Positions 6,960-26,349 of a stretch of DNA of 64,000 nt are shown here, in pieces (the stretch's first letter is position 1; every line of letters starts with the position of its first letter). Where the stretch lies: contig CAVTBR010000001.1 of the NCBI GenBank assembly GCA_963733055.1, forward strand, positions 512,001-576,000, read 5' to 3'. This DNA comes from Candidatus Bathyarchaeota archaeon (GTDB lineage: Archaea > Thermoproteota > Bathyarchaeia > 40CM-2-53-6). The position numbers and the translations under genes were made by a program. The notes below the pieces were generated by a model. That model did no database searches and was not told the DNA's origin. It saw only the letters and a program-made list of their open reading frames with translations.

Positions 6960-6998
6960 GTGTGTGGGTCTAGTGGTGCGAACGACCAGATTTGAACC
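6960..6998 (+). repeat. 28-bp site fused to tRNA-3'-end-like sequence
   Basis: GTGTGTGGGTC-TAGTGG-TGCGAACGACC-A-GATTTGAACC; reverse complement of 6974-6998 is GGTTCAAATC-TGGTCGTT-CGCACCA. Confidence 0.8.
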
Positions 6999-7082
6999 CG
7001 GTTGAATGTGCCCGGTAAATTGCGGTCAGGATCGGTTGGCAGGATTTCAGAGTGAAGTTGGACCGCGCGTTCGTTCGGCTGT

Positions 7083-7661
7083 TCAGCTGTATGTCTTTAC
7101 GAGGGTTTCGAGTTTCTGGGTGGCTTGTGTGGTTACGGCTTTCTTCAGGTCGTTTCCCTGATGGTCCTGGGTTACTAGTACTGGTCCGAAGTCTTTTACT
7201 TCCCATATCCAAACGAGTTCCGTTGGGCCAAGTTGTTCAAGCAATCGTTTCTTCACTCGTACGATCTTTGAGACGGCTAGGGCGGAGGCTCCGCCGGTGA
7301 ATTCGGAGTAGACGGCGCCGAATGTTTCCAGCCCCTTCTTCCCTTTCTCTCCTAGACCGCCTTTTCCGATGATGATTTTGGTTTGATACTTTTCTAGGAT
7401 GGGTGGGGTTAGGGCGTCCATGCGTGTGCTTGTGGTTGGGCCGCCGGCTAGGATCCTCCATTCGTCGCCGACCTTTTGTGAGATTGGGCCGCAGTGGAAG
7501 ATTGGTAGGCCGATTAGTTCTGGGAGGAATGTTTCGATTAGTTTCTTGTGGGCTTGATCTCTCGCGATTGCAATGTCGCCTGTGACATAGAGTACGTCTC
7601 CTGCACGAATGTCAACGACTCGGCTGTTGTCTTGTGGGACGTGGAGTCTTAATTCTACCAT
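7083..7661 (-). CDS. Class I fumarate hydratase / tartrate dehydratase, beta subunit
   Basis: ARDQAHK, GPTTSTRM, IIGKGG and DFGP motifs. Confidence 0.92.
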   Translation of the reverse strand: MVELRLHVPQDNSRVVDIRAGDVLYVTGDIAIARDQAHKKLIETFLPELIGLPIFHCGPISQKVGDEWRILAGGPTTSTRMDALTPPILEKYQTKIIIGKGGLGEKGKKGLETFGAVYSEFTGGASALAVSKIVRVKKRLLEQLGPTELVWIWEVKDFGPVLVTQDHQGNDLKKAVTTQATQKLETLVKTYS

Positions 7662-7667
7662 TGTATC

Positions 7668-8531
7668 TCACCTTGTGATCTTGAAGTGTCCGTCGGTTAG
7701 TTCGGCTTCTGAAACTCTGTTTGCCCAGCATCCGAAAGAGATCGCTATGGGGAGGCAGGCGGTGTGGGTTCCGGCGGTTTCGATGTGAGCGTCGAGAAGG
7801 GTGGTGTCGCCCCCTAGGCCCATGGTCCCTATTCCAAGCTCGTTAGCGGCTTTCACGATGTTCGTTTCGAACTGTGCTACTTCGGGGTCGGGGTTGCGTG
7901 CGCCAATTTTTCTGAGTAATGCGAGTTTTGAGTTGACCATCGCTTGAACGGCGGATCCGCCGATTCCGATGCCTAGGATGTTGGGCGGGCAGGTTTTTCC
8001 TCCCGCGTCTATCACGGCTTGGAGAATATGCTTCATCATGTCTTGTCTGCTGGCGGTTGGGACCATCATCTTCAGGTTGGTGAAGTTCTCTGAACCAGCT
8101 CCCTTCAAAATCATCTTCATAGCAGTTTTGTCTGTAGACTTGTCTATCAGAACTTCCGGCTCGCCAAGTCCGGTGTTGGTGCCCGTGTTCTTTCTCGTGA
8201 GTGGGTTGACGACGTTCGCCCTCATACCGCCCTTAGAGGTGAGGCCCTGAATCGCCTCGCTCAAAGCGTTCTCCACCTCACCCATATGCTCGATCAAGTC
8301 CCCTGAAATGAAGAGCGTAACTAAACCCGTGTCTTGGCAGAGGGGAAGATGCCGTTCGTAACTCAGGTTAGCGCTGTTCAGGATGGCTTCGAGTTGTTTC
8401 TTGGCCAAGTCTTTTGTCTCATTCACATGAGCCTCCTTGATAGCGCCCATAATGTCCGACGGAAGCCCCATCGTAACCTGCGCGAGCATCTGATTCAATA
8501 TTGGAGGCAAATCATTTGCAGTAAATACCAT
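7668..8531 (-). CDS. Class I fumarate hydratase / tartrate dehydratase, alpha subunit
   Basis: PLCQDTG, KGAGSEN, CPP, GIGIGG, GLGG and CWA motifs. Confidence 0.92.
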   Translation of the reverse strand: MVFTANDLPPILNQMLAQVTMGLPSDIMGAIKEAHVNETKDLAKKQLEAILNSANLSYERHLPLCQDTGLVTLFISGDLIEHMGEVENALSEAIQGLTSKGGMRANVVNPLTRKNTGTNTGLGEPEVLIDKSTDKTAMKMILKGAGSENFTNLKMMVPTASRQDMMKHILQAVIDAGGKTCPPNILGIGIGGSAVQAMVNSKLALLRKIGARNPDPEVAQFETNIVKAANELGIGTMGLGGDTTLLDAHIETAGTHTACLPIAISFGCWANRVSEAELTDGHFKITR

Positions 8532-8681
8532 TCACTATCAACCGTATGCACCATGAGGAAGAGGTAACTTATGGAACGCGCTCTTACTGCCACTAGAATA
8601 TATTCTCATTAACCTGAATCAGCAGAATTAACTACGTTATCGTTTCGTATTGAGACTATCCAAAGCAAAAGAGGAATTCAT

Positions 8682-9086
8682 ATGGACATCAAAAGAAGTG
8701 GCTCACAGCCTTCAACCAAACTACCGGCCGAGTATTTCACCGGCACCGTGCGCATTGACCCCCTATTCGAAGCGCACGATCCGTCACGCGCAACCGGCCT
8801 CAGTGTCACGTTCGAACCCGGAGCCCGGACCGCATGGCACAGCCACCCGCTGGGCCAGACCCTGATCGTGACAGCTGGCTGCGGACTTGTACAGCACTGG
8901 GGAGGCAGGATCGAGGAAATTCGGCCTGGGGACGTGGTTTCGATTCCGCCGGGCGAGAAGCATTGGCACGGCGCCACGCCGACCACGGCCATGACCCACA
9001 TCGCCATTCAAGAACGGCTTGACGGCAAGACCGCCAACTGGATGGAAAAAGTCAGCGACGAACAATACCGTACCTACAAGGGTTGA
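8682..9086 (+). CDS. Cupin domain protein
   Basis: [16 protein letters not shown] and EKHWHGA motifs. Confidence 0.9.
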
Positions 9087-9116
9087 GTAGCTGATAGCAG
9101 CTACCTCCTAGGCGCA

Positions 9117-9755
9117 CTATTCTCGAAACTTACGTTCGGAAACTCGTCTGATAGATGATAGGATGAGTGGGATGAACCAGAAGTAGAATCGTATCGGTTG
9201 GTTCAGGAGTTTAATGTCCCAGAATACTGGCAGTACGGTGATAGCAAATAGGGCTGTGGATATGAAGTAAATGTTCCTAACTCTCGTGTATTTCGCGAGT
9301 GACTCTTTTGGAACTAATCCCTTCTCTTCCGTGGCTAATTGCTGCGTGAATAACGCGAGAATCAGCATCAGCCCGGCCATGTCTAGGGCGTAGAGTATTG
9401 AAGCGTAGTAGAGGAATATTTCATGCGTTAGAAGGTCGAAGGTTATGTTCAGGTAGAATAGGTAAGGTTCGATCGAGACCAGAAAGAGCAATACGAGGTT
9501 GAGGGTAACGGTCCTGCTATCCTCCAATGGAAGAACCGACATTACGTTCGTATAACTCAACCAGACAGAGATCAAAATCAGGAAACCGAACCCGAACTCC
9601 GCAATGTCGATAAGGATTCCGAGTGGCTTCGGGGGAAGCCGGGTTATCAGGGGAATAGTGCTGATCGCAAGAGCAAGCCCGAATATGATGTCGGAGAGCG
9701 ACTCAATTCGGGACCTAGCAATTCGCGGCCCAGCTCGTCCCACTTTTTCGTCCAA
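9117..9755 (-). CDS. TMEM175-family (DUF1211) potassium channel-like protein (copy 1)
   Basis: RIESLSDIIFGLAL matches the RxxxFSD signature; about six hydrophobic segments. Confidence 0.85.
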   Translation of the reverse strand: MDEKVGRAGPRIARSRIESLSDIIFGLALAISTIPLITRLPPKPLGILIDIAEFGFGFLILISVWLSYTNVMSVLPLEDSRTVTLNLVLLFLVSIEPYLFYLNITFDLLTHEIFLYYASILYALDMAGLMLILALFTQQLATEEKGLVPKESLAKYTRVRNIYFISTALFAITVLPVFWDIKLLNQPIRFYFWFIPLILSSIRRVSERKFRE

Positions 9756-25056: not shown

Positions 25057-25707
25057 TCACATGTTTTTTGCTTTGCGACTCAGGAGCAATAAATGCTGAA
25101 GTCCACGACTTACCCAGAGGCTTGCCAGAATCGCATACCAAAGGTAGAATCGCAGTGGAGTGCCTTGGATCATCCAGGACCAAAAGATTGGAAGAGCGGA
25201 TAACCCAAACAACCCAGCGGATATAAACTGCGTATTACGGAGCCACGTATACCCACCAATTAATTCCGGCTCGACCATTTCCTCTTTCCTCGTCAACATC
25301 TGTGCAAACAACCCCAAAATTCCAGTCAGGCCGGTCAAGTCGAGAGCGTAAATTTGAGATGTGAATGCAAGCATAGCGTGGTTTGCGGTGGCTGGGCCGA
25401 AAGTGATGAGGCTAAGCAGGTAGGGCTCGATCGAAACGAAGAAGAGCAGGAGGATATTCAGCCACATCATCATCCCCCTCTCGAAGCGGTCTCGCGGCCA
25501 GGCAGTTACCATACCAGTGTATCTGGACCAAACAGAAATCAAAATGAAGAAACTAAAACCGAATCCGAAAATGTCAGCCACAACGTCACTTGGATTGACG
25601 GCCGGTCGACTCAGCAACGACAACGATCCAATCGAGAGAGCCAGGCCGAATATCAAATCAGAGAGGGATTCGATTCTAGGTTTCGGAATTCGTACACCGA
25701 ACGTCAA
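25057..25707 (-). CDS. TMEM175-family channel-like protein (copy 2)
   Basis: RIESLSDLIFGLAL and FVSIEPYL; paralog of 9117-9755. Confidence 0.85.
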   Translation of the reverse strand: MTFGVRIPKPRIESLSDLIFGLALSIGSLSLLSRPAVNPSDVVADIFGFGFSFFILISVWSRYTGMVTAWPRDRFERGMMMWLNILLLFFVSIEPYLLSLITFGPATANHAMLAFTSQIYALDLTGLTGILGLFAQMLTRKEEMVEPELIGGYTWLRNTQFISAGLFGLSALPIFWSWMIQGTPLRFYLWYAILASLWVSRGLQHLLLLSRKAKNM

Positions 25708-25833
25708 TCACCCACGTAAATGTCCAGCGAGTTAACAGTGAATTTTCGCTAATAAGCTCCTTTTTCCCGACCAAACGTGGACAATCAGTCTGGTCAAACA
25801 GCGAAGGAAGCAAGAGGATGTTCAGTGGAAAGT

Positions 25834-25861
25834 GTGTGTGGATCGAATCGTGCGCACACAC
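25834..25861 (+). repeat. 28-bp 11-6-11 site
   Basis: GTGTGTGGATC-GAATCG-TGCGCACACAC. Confidence 0.9.
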
Positions 25862-25885
25862 TAGCGGATCCTAGGGTCGCTCGTA

Positions 25886-26098
25886 TTATGGAGGCATTAC
25901 TCTTTTGCCGCTTCTCTTATCGAACATAACCGTCCACCCGCCCCTTGGAGAAACGCCTCTGATAACATAAAAATCCGCATCTTCGAACTTTTCAGTAACC
26001 GCTGCCTGATGCCACGCGGTTCTAGCGAATAGCTCCGCACGCCTAGAAGCCTCATTCAAGTCCAAAATCTTCTCAGGTTCCATTCTCCTTTCGGGCAT
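25886..26098 (-). CDS. Small hypothetical protein
   Basis: 70 aa from ATG 26098 (MPERRMEPEK...WTVMFDKRSG); lies between two repeat sites. Confidence 0.5.
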   Translation of the reverse strand: MPERRMEPEKILDLNEASRRAELFARTAWHQAAVTEKFEDADFYVIRGVSPRGGWTVMFDKRSGKRVMPP

Positions 26099-26260
26099 TC
26101 TGCGCCGGTTCCTCTGCCACTCACGCCTAGCCAAGACAGTCCCCAATGGCGATAACTTGGACACGTGAATAGAACTTTTCCCGCGGCGGCTAGAACTAGT
26201 ATAGGGTATTGGCGCAGGTTGTTGTGTCGATGCGGCTGTGTGAGTACCTGAATTTGAATC

Positions 26261-26288
26261 GACGTCGGTCCTAATGGTGCGCACACAC
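26261..26288 (+). repeat. 28-bp 11-6-11 site directly after a T-loop-like box
   Basis: GACGTCGGTCC-TAATGG-TGCGCACACAC; AATTTGAATC at 26251-26260. Confidence 0.8.
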
Positions 26289-26310
26289 ACTTACCACGCT
26301 AAACGACGGC

Positions 26311-26349
26311 GGTTCAAATCATCGTGCTCGCACCAGCTGTAACACTCCC
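26311..26349 (-). repeat. Site fused to tRNA-3'-end-like sequence, reverse orientation
   Basis: + strand GGTTCAAATC-ATCGTGCT-CGCACCA-GCTGTAACACTCCC. Confidence 0.75.

Follow-up and report, generated by a model that had tools for sequence, protein, structure and literature searches.

Strings resembling tRNA 3' ends and a mosaic intergenic repeat at the borders of variable gene blocks in Bathyarchaeia

Background

In Acinetobacter plasmids, small accessory-gene modules are flanked by many plasmid dif (pdif) sites, which are imperfect palindromes of 28 bp. The modules are described as being shuffled between replicons and as having no recombinase gene inside them (PMC6449649, PMC13141974). Integron cassette arrays and CALINs have been reported in archaeal MAGs (PMC9668308, whose main text does not contain the string 'Bathyarchae'). 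Bacterial REP/BIME elements, according to PMC2817692, combine short extragenic palindromes with other motifs in alternating orientation, giving mosaics in tens of copies.

Here, we analyzed 64,000 nt of a Candidatus Bathyarchaeota genome (the window). It has in common with the pdif modules of those reports that 28-bp imperfect palindromes surround small modules without an internal recombinase gene. However, the sites lie on an archaeal chromosome and carry an extra tRNA-like arm, and the genome has no detected XerA equivalog, any Xer-type role being only putative. The strict alternation of site orientation with which dif modules are described was not seen either. The likeness to integrons and CALINs is one of layout: mostly single-gene units separated by imperfect palindromes, array content that differs among relatives, and lack of an integrase, which is common in the arrays described (PMC9668308). 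Unlike in those arrays, the genes lie on both strands in no fixed relation to the site, and the 28-bp core has its own consensus. As in the REP/BIME of PMC2817692, palindromes and other motifs form mosaic elements in tens of copies, but these are archaeal, clustered in variable arrays, joined to an apparently tRNA-derived module and not accompanied by a RAYT/Y1 transposase in the genome.

Some features recall the tRNA-gene att sites of tyrosine integrases. The module spans the segment from T-loop to CCA, as does a genuine duplicate on contig C2; a real tRNA-Arg(TCT) gene can occupy its slot with the arm 3' of it; and the DNA 3' of that gene differs among all relatives examined. In contrast to such att sites, the copies number in the hundreds per genus, spread with the repeat, have T61, lack a T-stem and show a middle part unlike any tRNA, and no integrase lies beside the arrays.

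Two tRNA-like strings that are not tRNA genes

An earlier note on this DNA had described two 25-mers that mimic a tRNA 3' end. Both are present, at 26311-26335 on the plus strand (GGTTCAAATC-ATCGTGCT-CGCACCA) and as the reverse complement of 6974-6998 (GGTTCAAATC-TGGTCGTT-CGCACCA). They are genuine and lie well above chance expectation: GGTTCAAATC-N8-CGCACCA (25 nt) matches twice in the window versus 0.00 expected from 100 dinucleotide shuffles, and GGTTCRAATC-N12-CCA has 34 matches in the whole genome, its reversed control 0.

The strings are not tRNA genes. ARAGORN found no tRNA at either of them, whether introns were allowed or not, and an Rfam search of window positions 5000-28000 gave no tRNA match at E≤10. 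The T-stems pair as poorly as the note had stated, since none of 25 non-tRNA copies reaches five pairs (one pair in 6 copies, two in 4, three in 10 and four in 5). T replaces the invariant C61 in 17 of 24 non-tRNA copies. The box and CGCACCA are invariant in these copies, while the middle is variable, with a consensus of its own (.cG.tGCc) that no tRNA of the genome matches. Single-strand folding of the box-CGCACCA module was not better than that of shuffled sequences (z of +1.8 and +0.9), and most likely the module acts as DNA rather than as a tRNA-like RNA.

A mosaic intergenic repeat

Both strings are part of a repeat (Table 1) with the core GTGTGTG-(ggt)NNNN-TGGTGCG-CACACAC, an imperfect palindrome of 28 bp, of which CGCACCA is the inner part, as had been noted before. 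The core can be flanked on either side by a unit, U, in which an A-rich spacer and an ACGACG-type tract precede the box GGTTCAAAT. When a reversed core (CGCACCA-N7-CACACAC) lies 8-9 nt beyond U, the string box-N9-CGCACCA arises, with exactly the length from T-loop to CCA in a tRNA. Aligned copies show a mosaic layout with units in alternating orientation.

The spacing between box and CCA is constant. Across the genome, all 14 places with GGTTCRAAT and CGCACCA within 40 nt have a gap of 9: seven tRNA ends with perfect T-stem, one duplicated tRNA end next to an integrase (C2:409287) and six non-tRNA repeat copies of GGTTCAAAT-N9-CGCACCA, both window strings among them. In 126 foreign loci from other Bathyarchaeia MAGs, 18 pairs of box and CGCACCA lie within 60 nt of each other, and 17 of them have a gap of 9. 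The form with C61 changed to T, GGTTCAAWTT-N8-CGCACCA, occurs 180 times within the genus, spread over 19 of 23 genomes (control, 0 in 41 genomes), 107 of the copies having N7+CACAC on the 3' side; one genome from another family holds a further 8 copies.

The exact half-site TGGTGCGCACACAC has 13 copies in the genome. With up to two mismatches allowed, it matches 54 times; reversed, the pattern matches 6 times, and five shuffled versions match 10-29 times each. Of 22 genomes of the same genus, 21 contain the half-site (up to 33 copies each), and the reversed control is absent from all 41 genomes searched. Outside the genus, occurrence of the half-site is patchy (one of two sampled genomes in each of two other families). 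Copies are clustered in few variable arrays rather than genome-wide, and contig C3 (776 kb) has none. By crude longest-ORF calls, made without a gene finder, 37 of 42 sites lie outside ORFs of at least 90 aa, with the four arrangements of flanking genes about equal (10, 11, 8 and 8, the 11 being convergent).

More degenerate boxes had also been reported. Four of the seven positions fit the consensus (10025, 19584, 24379, 26251), while 6105, 15751 and 27162 are only looser variants, and the box at 10025 has no site nearby. RATTTGAAY matches the window 8 times versus 3.09 expected, a number reached by 3 of 100 shuffles. Of the possibilities raised in the note, a tRNA-derived dispersed repeat fits best.

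Table 1. Repeat elements and adjoining genes in the window (G019, sister genome)
Feature	Position	Strand	Remarks
Degenerate unit	6100..6160	+	AAATCTGAACC, GTCGTnG tract, degenerate core, CACACAC; between two divergent KaiC-like genes
KaiC-like gene	6205-6936		Upstream of truncated unit
Truncated repeat unit	6959..6998	+	GTGTGTG-GGTCTAG-TGGTGCG, 8 nt, GATTTGAACC; directly 3' of KaiC-like stop
First tRNA-3'-end mimic	6974-6998	-	Inside truncated unit
Half-site TGTTGCGCACACAC	13756..13769	+	Left edge of variable region; G019 continues here with GGTTCAAAT-TTGGGTGCT-CGC
Variant half-site GGGTGGTGCGTGCGCAC	15680..15760	+	Degenerate spacer and box ending at synteny breakpoint 15758
Variant half-site GGGTGGTGCGCACGCAC	19102..19129	+	At synteny breakpoint 19123
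28-bp site	19616..19643	+	Box AATTTGAAC upstream (19584-19592); G019 homology restarts 14 nt right of site
28-bp site	21199..21226	+	Between convergent peroxiredoxin and GYD genes; left end of 3.7-kb, 5-gene block absent from G019 and metagenome contigs
28-bp site	21670..21697	+	Between divergent genes
28-bp site	22549..22576	+	18 nt 3' of KaiC-like stop, convergent genes; several metagenome contigs part from window at right edge
Site with exact half-site, inverted	23136..23163	-
Box (24379-24387) and inverted site with exact half-site	24379..24429	-	Contigs with other neighbours begin at its edges
28-bp site	24911..24938	+	Bounds 3.7-kb block on the right; has TAGTGCG variant, also found as right half of the one hybrid site in G019
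28-bp site	25834..25861	+	G019 and metagenome-contig homology ends here
28-bp site	26260..26288	+	Degenerate left arm, exact right half TGGTGCGCACACAC
Unit U	26289..26320	+	Spacer with ACGACG-type tract, ending in box GGTTCAAATC; layout recurs in other copies
Second mimic	26311..26349	+	GGTTCAAATC-ATCGTGCT-CGCACCA and degenerate arm GCTGTAA-CACTCCC
KaiC-like gene	26365-27084	-	3' end abuts second mimic
Degenerate box GAAATTGAATC	27161..27171	+	G019 homology restarts; right edge of variable region; upstream, G019 has GTGTGTG-ATGCTGC-CGGTGCG-AGCATCGG, a mimic in reverse

The mosaic of alternating units and the strictly intergenic sites, 11 of 37 between convergent genes, would also suit a REP/BIME-like extragenic repeat, in which the palindrome and its partners serve as structural or regulatory elements (insulation, termination, binding of a nucleoid protein). 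The 28-bp site alone forms a weak hairpin (z of -2.2 to -2.4), and the T-runs before it and A-runs after it would stop archaeal transcription from both sides. However, we found no Y1/RAYT transposase in the genome, which is 96% complete, with a search that was positive in 6 of 14 reference genomes used as control. The confinement of the copies to few variable arrays speaks against such an element as well. Moreover, an asymmetric 14-mer is kept exact across the genus and two other families, which argues for sequence-specific protein recognition over a mere hairpin. We regard this explanation as rather unlikely.

Relation to tRNA-Arg(TCT) and to integration scars

Seven tRNAs of the genome that have a perfect T-stem end in CGCA-CCA, as the proposal of a tRNA-derived site presupposed. 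The proposed arm was found as well: tRNA-Arg(TCT), which ends in CGCACCA, has a NNAGACC-CACACAC-like arm 3' of it. In this genome, the arm is a near match (CCAGACA-CATACAC), followed by a spacer, an ACGACG tract and GGTTCAATT; an exact N7+CACAC arm is present 3' of 9 copies of the gene in 6 of 22 relatives. Genus-wide, a C61/C62 T-arm that runs to CCA and then N7+CACAC occurs in 14 cases, tRNA-Arg(TCT) accounting for 9, and this gene still sits in the slot of the module in several genomes. Judged by the N9 profile of the copies, it is the best real tRNA by a small margin (0.458 versus 0.426 for the next). Two relatives have a tRNA-Arg(TCT) 3' end that window positions 6958-7001 match at 85-86% (40-44 nt aligned). 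Since tRNA-Arg(TCT) ends in CGCACCA and has the same arm 3' of it, the most likely origin of the module is the 3' end and trailer of this gene. The limited occurrence of the arm (just 6 of 22 relatives and the near match here) is a weak point of the overall reading that we favor below. Another is the constancy of box and CGCACCA next to a drifting middle, which would need selection or repeated copying.

Genuine duplicates of tRNA ends do exist in the genome. The sequence C2:409287-409311, beside a tyrosine recombinase, duplicates the tRNA end at C2:330437, and the two are identical from tRNA position 51, just before the T-loop, to CCA, so integrases of this lineage do use that segment. A second pair (C1:1423416 and C1:1428505) has an integrase fragment between its members. 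It could be argued that the repeat copies are likewise independent attL/attR scars, now decaying, left by integrations into various tRNA genes that end in CGCACCA. This idea, which the note had considered, is largely refuted by the derived states common to the copies: some 180 of them have T61, invariant ends and a middle consensus that matches no tRNA, and neutral decay would not leave two ends intact. In addition, the copies are preceded by the ACGACG tract of the repeat, not by tRNA bodies or element DNA, and have no integrase nearby. We consider independent scars very improbable.

Sites at the borders of variable gene blocks

The blocks between sites differ among related genomes, with breakpoints at the sites. 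Contig C10 of the sister genome G019 is collinear with window positions 9873-13770 and 27154-37845 at 85–89% identity, with two further indels within these stretches. The gene content of the intervening 13.8-27.2 kb differs, with synteny on both sides. Shared blocks end at 13770, 15758, 19123, 19658, 21226/24911, 25861 and 27154, and every one of these ends coincides with a site or box. The two sites that lie 3.7 kb apart in this genome correspond to a single hybrid site in G019, from which the crossover can be placed no more precisely than in the left or central portion. The sites border blocks of single genes, and related soil archaea carry these blocks in varying combinations.

We give a probability of about one half to the reading that the tRNA-like strings represent a single module of a lineage-specific repeat of this Bathyarchaeia genus and that the repeat is a family of att/dif-like recombination sites. 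The 3' end and trailer of tRNA-Arg(TCT) would have founded the module, which would then have spread as part of the repeat. Single-gene blocks would be gained, lost and re-joined between related genomes at the sites through att/dif-type site-specific recombination, catalyzed by a recombinase whose gene lies elsewhere in the genome, and the tRNA-like arm would be left over from the tRNA-side half that the site originally had.

The genome encodes six tyrosine recombinases. None of them maps to the window or to an array, three are on contig C3, which has no site, and none reaches the cut-off for the XerA equivalog (best 68.8 bits versus 220). This lack of linkage counts against the recombination-site reading and in favor of a REP/BIME-like element, for which gene reshuffling would be ordinary recombination at short homology among many copies, and the tRNA likeness a frozen accident of a founder copy beside tRNA-Arg. 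Exchange between 28-bp repeats could indeed be homology-driven.

The flanking genes encode a peroxiredoxin, DinB (2), glyoxalase (2), disulfide reductases, dodecin and a luciferase-like monooxygenase. Such enrichment in redox and detoxification functions, found in many blocks, is a further point against recombination sites in that it would also suit a stress regulon in which the repeats are operator or promoter modules. In that case, TGGTGCGCACACAC would be bound by a transcription factor such as the HTH_10 protein encoded next to the array (27192-28130) and kept in G019. The box would be TATA-like and lie about 30 nt upstream of a CACACAC start region, setting the 'tRNA' distance; the archaeal TATA-to-start distance is compatible with this geometry. 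However, 22 of 32 mimics face the 3' end of a gene and 10 point to an outward-reading one, and the 11 of 37 sites between convergent genes are not where a promoter is expected. The tRNA-Arg gene has an ordinary TTTTATAC box upstream, and the location of all synteny breakpoints at sites would be left unexplained. A regulon therefore seems improbable.

For the proposed att/dif-like sites, metagenome contigs provide further junctions. The 21200-to-24911 joint is also present in contigs of three metagenome runs, and several differing neighbours start at the site edges 19610, 19646, 22579, 24394, 24428 and 25861.

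tRNA-like strings with a fixed spacing

Two 25-nt strings in the window, GGTTCAAATC-ATCGTGCT-CGCACCA and, on the other strand, GGTTCAAATC-TGGTCGTT-CGCACCA, resemble the T-loop-to-CCA end of a tRNA (see table). Their positions and contents, first reported in an earlier note, were confirmed by reading the sequence. The pattern GGTTCAAATC-N8-CGCACCA occurs twice in the window, against 0.00 occurrences expected from 100 dinucleotide-preserving shuffles, and the box-to-CCA spacing pointed out in that note thus withstands shuffling. In the whole genome (G000; 2.88 Mb in three contigs, 50.5% G+C), of which the window is C1:512001-576000, GGTTCRAATC-N12-CCA was matched 34 times, in the majority of cases with the G+C-rich stems of real tRNA ends, and the backwards pattern was never matched. 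GGTTCRAAT followed by CGCACCA within 40 nt was found at 14 places, and the gap was 9 at all 14, so that the spacing is conserved genome-wide, as had been supposed. Seven of these places are real tRNA ends with a perfect T-stem; tRNAs ending in CGCA-CCA, on which the earlier reading depended, therefore exist in the lineage. One more place is the duplicated end of the tRNA at C2:330437, beside a tyrosine recombinase, and the last six, including both window strings, are non-tRNA copies. The shuffles and reversed-pattern controls (in G000 and in 41 genomes) rule out chance as the origin of the strings.

An intact or intron-bearing tRNA at the two strings was ruled out by ARAGORN in both modes and by Rfam. 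Plain ARAGORN called no tRNA in the window, the intron-permitting mode called 33 tRNAs in G000 (nearly all with introns) of which none lies at either string, and Rfam returned no tRNA match, and no integron-relevant match, at E≤10 in window 5000–28000. The T-stems had been said to pair poorly, and five pairs (49–53 with 61–65) are indeed formed in none of 25 non-tRNA copies; by reading of the sequence, the window copies pair at three and two of the five positions. As a single strand, the module does not outdo shuffled sequence in folding (z +1.8 and +0.9). The low T-stem pairing and the shuffle-level folds therefore point to a likeness to a tRNA end in DNA sequence, not to a tRNA-like structure, and annotators should be aware that most T-loop-to-CCA strings of these genomes are something other than tRNA fragments.

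The tRNA set of G000 is probably incompletely called. The intron-permitting mode recovered a tRNA-Ser(cga) in the window that plain ARAGORN missed, with a 51-nt intron and the 3' end GGTTCAAATCCCTCCGGACCCGCCA. Some of the introns in the 33 calls lie at unusual positions and some are of implausible length. The tRNA genes of this genome encode the CCA.

Coordinates of features in the window, in contigs of G000 (C1, C2) and in a viral contig
Feature	Location	Strand	Remark
T-loop-to-CCA string	window 26311-26335	+	
T-loop-to-CCA string	window 6974-6998	-	
Other non-tRNA copies with gap 9	C1:813687, C1:1330382, C1:1332510, C1:1506444		
tRNA-Arg(TCT)	C1:343231-343392	-	
Match to tRNA-Arg 3' ends of relatives	window 6958-7001		85-86% over 40-44 nt
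Stretch similar to L183 of G019	window 7005-7035		about 25 nt
tRNA-Ser(cga)	window 58452-58595	-	
tRNA called Ser(gct)	C2:330298-330461		
Duplicated end of that tRNA	C2:409287-409311		
Tyrosine recombinase beside the duplicate	C2:408467-408949		
Pair of identical tRNA ends	C1:1423416, C1:1428505		5 kb apart
KaiC-like ATPase genes	window 5340-6041, 6205-6936, 21806-22531, 26365-27084		
Site-containing ORF	window 13679-14059		no Pfam match
Stretches collinear with G019 C10	window 9873-13770, 27154-37845		85-89% identity
Shared block: 824-aa ORF block			97% identity to G019
Shared block: luciferase-like gene			91% identity to G019
Shared block: peroxiredoxin gene			91% identity to G019
Shared block: TMEM175-like gene			93% identity to G019
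824-aa ORF	window 16361-18835	-	no Pfam match
Direct repeat of about 250 nt	window 15460-15707, 18945-19129		78-79% identity
1-kb stretch with 277-aa ORF	window 10720-11760		28 nt in G019
Mimic plus arm, contig L233	876-985		IMG/VR
L155	C1:1566000-1571000		near contig end

A mosaic repeat of the genus

The repeat family is real and much larger than the two strings of the earlier note. GGTTCAAWTT-N8-CGCACCA, the version with T at tRNA position 61 (T61), is present in 180 copies in 19 of the 23 genus genomes and also in 8 copies in one genome of another family; N7+CACAC follows 107 of the 180, and the reversed control was absent from all 41 genomes searched. C61 is an invariant tRNA base, and since T replaces it here, the T61 version cannot be a canonical T-arm. 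Among 24 unique copies (consensus AcGAc-GGTTCAAATT.cG.tGCcCGCACCA-.cagacCCACaCaC) the middle varies, and the box and CGCACCA show no change. T occupies position 61 in 17 of them and C in 7, and both window copies retain C.

The repeat includes a 28-bp site, GTGTGTG-(ggt)NNNN-TGGTGCG-CACACAC, of which TGGTGCGCACACAC is the right half. Its symmetry is confined to the outer 7 nt and does not extend to the inner parts, and positions 11–14 vary; the length is that of dif-type sites, and the site alone forms a weak hairpin (z –2.2 to –2.4 against shuffles). Exact half-sites number 13 in G000, rising to 54 with up to two mismatches, versus 6 for the reversed and 10–29 for five shuffled patterns. Of 22 same-genus genomes, 21 have the half-site, in as many as 33 copies; in two further families of the order, each sampled with two genomes, one of the two has it (11 copies each); its control was absent from every genome searched. 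A scan of the 28-bp pattern over one genome per prokaryote species gave at least 126 loci, and among the matches listed nearly all sources were Bathyarchaeia or Bathyarchaeota MAGs. The loci listed (41.6 kb) contain 47 boxes and 18 box-to-CGCACCA pairs within 60 nt, 17 of the 18 at gap 9.

The copies, viewed with their flanks, show a mosaic layout, in which a unit U (A-rich spacer, ACGACG-type tract and box GGTTCAAAT) often stands beside the site, as written on its right and as reverse complement on its left. The mimic, i.e. the box-N9-CGCACCA string, arises where U precedes a reversed site (CGCACCA-N7-CACACAC) by 8–9 nt, and relatives carry tandem runs of U plus reversed site with a period of 50–66 nt. 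Such extragenic imperfect palindromes in a mosaic of alternating orientation are also found in REP/BIME elements, and a repeat of that type, acted on by ordinary recombination, is the main rival of the recombination-site reading preferred below. The RAYT/Y1 transposase (PF01797) has no match in G000, which is 96% complete, while the control was positive in 6 of 14 reference genomes; this speaks against a REP/BIME-like repeat, which we consider rather unlikely.

In viral contigs the 28-bp pattern had no match and the mimic plus arm had one, near a contig end; no integrase was recognised among the six ORFs scanned on that contig. This IMG/VR contig (L233, with the mimic within 1 kb of its end) is the only one in the viral collection with mimic plus arm. 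It has a variant site just before the mimic, with arms GTCGTCGTCG and CGACGACGAC around N7-TGGTGCG, which suggests that the ACGACG tracts of the repeat can replace the GTGTGTG/CACACAC arms.

Relation to tRNA-Arg(TCT)

A tRNA that ends in CGCA-CCA and continues into an arm, as looked for on the earlier reading, was found once, in tRNA-Arg(TCT), whose arm in G000 is a near match. Its end ...GGTTCAAATCCCGGCGGCCGCACCA is followed by CCAGACA-CATACAC-attcacg-AACGACGATGAT-GGTTCAATT, which corresponds to the rest of the mosaic. This 3' end is present with at most one change in 20 of 23 genus genomes; the DNA downstream differs in every relative examined, and the tRNA often lies at contig ends. Genus-wide, a T-arm with C61/C62 running to CCA and then N7+CACAC was seen in 14 cases: nine are tRNA-Arg(TCT), spread over 6 of 22 relatives, and the rest comprise three repeat copies and two other strings. 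tRNA-Arg(TCT) is also the best real tRNA on the profile of the copies' middle region, by a small margin (0.458 versus 0.426 for the next), and over nine middle positions it agrees with the copies only in part, short of identity or near-identity. In an unbiased BLAST of window 2600–10200 against five relatives, the region of the first mimic matched the tRNA-Arg 3' ends of G013 and of the sister genome G019.

The junction at the real tRNA-Arg(TCT), a near match in G000 and present in 6 of 22 relatives, would also suit the literal reading of the earlier note, in which the strings are independent attL/attR scars. However, T61 and other derived states are shared by the copies, which largely excludes such scars; in addition, no integrase gene lies in the window or the examined arrays, and the middle is only partly tRNA-Arg-like. 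We regard independent scars as very improbable. Because T61 is shared, the copies multiplied as one family and not from many separate origins, and the tRNA-Arg(TCT) end with its trailer is the inferred ancestor of the module.

Beside the first mimic, a short stretch of the window is similar to a stretch of G019 contig C107 (L183). The latter continues into a tRNA-like 3' end on the other strand (GGGGTCAGAATCCCCTTCCCCGCACCA), with no tRNA call by ARAGORN; the window lacks this tRNA-like end and about 170 nt beyond it.

Sites at the borders of variable gene blocks

Outside ORFs of at least 90 aa lie 37 of 42 sites, and the other five are inside ORFs of 114–152 aa, one of which was scanned (see table). 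Flanking genes show their four arrangements in similar numbers (10, 11, 8 and 8), with 11 of the 37 sites between convergent genes. A gene reading away follows only 10 of 32 mimics, which does not support the box as a promoter; the other 22, including both window copies, face the 3' end of a gene. Operator or promoter modules are thus disfavoured, because most mimics face 3' ends and so many sites separate convergent genes, and we hold them to be improbable. A paralogous flank alone, both window copies following KaiC-like genes, is too narrow an explanation because about 180 copies adjoin many kinds of genes.

In window 19.6–26.3 kb a site separates nearly every gene pair. Contig C10 of G019 is collinear with the window on both sides of a region in which it carries a different gene set, with two further indels in the collinear parts. 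The ends of the shared blocks (13770, 15758, 19123, 19658, 21226/24911, 25861 and 27154) each fall at a site, half-site or box. Where G019 has peroxiredoxin-site-TMEM175, G000 has five extra genes (3.7 kb) between two sites, and in the single G019 site the left flank is that of site 21199 and the right half, TAGTGCG, that of site 24911. Three metagenome runs have contigs with this joint as well (21200 to 24911, or 21205 to 24932), and for window 19000–27200 the search listed no RNA data set. Several metagenome contigs with differing continuations begin or end at 19610, 19646, 22579, 24394, 24428 and 25861; breaks at repeats may be partly caused by assembly, yet the contigs extend into other sequence. 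The right edge of the G019 variable region reads GTGTGTG-ATGCTGC-CGGTGCG-AGCATCGG-AAATTGAACC, a mimic in reverse, and homology to the window restarts exactly at the box after it. Peroxiredoxin orthologues of nine further relatives have differing neighbours, and five of the nine have a site or mimic within about 150 nt. Blocks between sites thus vary among related replicons with junctions at the sites, a feature of dif modules, and the proposal that modules are exchanged at these sites agrees with the breakpoints in G019 and the metagenome contigs.

A direct repeat flanks the 3.4-kb block that holds the 824-aa ORF, for which NCBIfam offers only a weak match, to a 'hypothetical protein' model. 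Both copies of the repeat have a variant half-site (GGGTGGTGCG..CGCAC) at the end, and the left copy extends over the 5' portion of a glyoxalase gene. A 1-kb stretch, in whose place G019 has 28 nt, encodes a 277-aa ORF with a weak Ig-like domain match; at neither end of this stretch was a 28-bp site seen.

The KaiC-like ATPases, frequent neighbours of the sites, are single-domain proteins of about 240 aa. A profile built from the four copies in the window has 31 matches in G000; the family is expanded in some genus genomes, and 8 of 22 relatives gave no match at E≤1e-15. At least 9 paralogs, among the 25 listed of 31, have a site within 80 nt of the stop. Their counts do not track site numbers: G002 has no match at E≤1e-15 but 33 exact half-sites, and G016 has 12 matches and one half-site. 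The ATPases were therefore rejected as a required enzyme partner and look like common cargo. The gene at 26365–27084 might sit in an inversion between two inverted boxes, but the two arms resemble G019 at family level only (18/25, manual count), which is too little for such a claim.

Candidate enzymes and interpretation

The sites have no linked enzyme. Tyrosine recombinases (PF00589) have six matches in G000; all lie outside the window and the examined arrays, and several adjoin tRNA ends as ordinary integrases would. None of the six reaches the cut-off of the NCBIfam XerA model (best G000 protein 68.8 bits versus 220) or of the integron-integrase model (21.7–63.3 bits versus 265). No reverse transcriptase (RVT_1) was matched in G000, and the idea of a primer-binding site, a string complementary to a tRNA 3' end, was dropped for this reason. 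Between position 51, immediately ahead of the T-loop, and CCA, the duplicate at C2:409287 does not differ from its tRNA; therefore the integrases of this lineage duplicate that segment. This tRNA was called Ser(gct), its duplicate lies 79 kb away next to a recombinase, and the two ends are candidate borders of a large integrated element. On C1, a 194-aa recombinase fragment lies between two more tRNA ends that are identical to each other.

We favour, with a probability of roughly 50%, the reading that the sites make up an att/dif-like family of recombination sites. Recombination would be carried out by an enzyme encoded elsewhere, and the tRNA-like arm would be left over from the tRNA-side half of the site. 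This reading fits best because the asymmetric 14-mer is exact across the genus and patchy beyond it, the sites are strictly intergenic irrespective of gene orientation, copies are concentrated in a small number of variable arrays, breakpoints and a hybrid site fall at sites, and a real tRNA end occupies the slot. A more specific version is possible though doubtful: a genus-wide chromosomal cassette exchange, the archaeal counterpart of integrons or dif modules, with a site evolved from the tRNA-Arg(TCT) 3' end plus trailer. The 28-bp palindrome would then be the cassette-borne site and the T-loop-to-CCA arm the docking (attB/attI-like) half, its ends invariant as they would be read by a recombinase encoded elsewhere.

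Bathyarchaeia are abundant, uncultured archaea of soils and sediments, and to our knowledge almost nothing is known of their means of gene exchange. The 14-mer with the tRNA-like arm provides a sequence-defined marker for the borders of variable single-gene blocks in the whole genus, traceable in any metagenome. If these are true recombination sites, they would represent a cassette system on a tRNA-derived site without a linked integrase, and a concrete substrate for testing archaeal tyrosine recombinases.

The closest known systems are tRNA att sites of integrases, dif modules, integron arrays and CALINs, and REP/BIME elements; the repeat has something in common with every one of them, yet always lacks at least one defining feature. 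It resembles tRNA att sites in the real tRNA with an arm, but has no adjoining integrase and is not near-identical. Judging from the available part of the published descriptions, it agrees with the dif modules of Acinetobacter plasmids in the 28-bp length and in the junctions at sites, its outer 7 nt being symmetric and its inner parts not; it differs from integron arrays and CALINs, including archaeal ones (PMC9668308), in that its genes have no fixed orientation; and it is like REP/BIME in its mosaic of extragenic palindromes, but G000 lacks a RAYT. Open full texts on Bathyarchaeota and Bathyarchaeia yielded nothing on this repeat.

Two exact half-sites were also found in L155, a locus of G000 that encodes a Cas4-like PD-(D/E)XK nuclease, an OB-fold SSB-like protein and a thymidylate-synthase-like protein, and that may be an integrated element.
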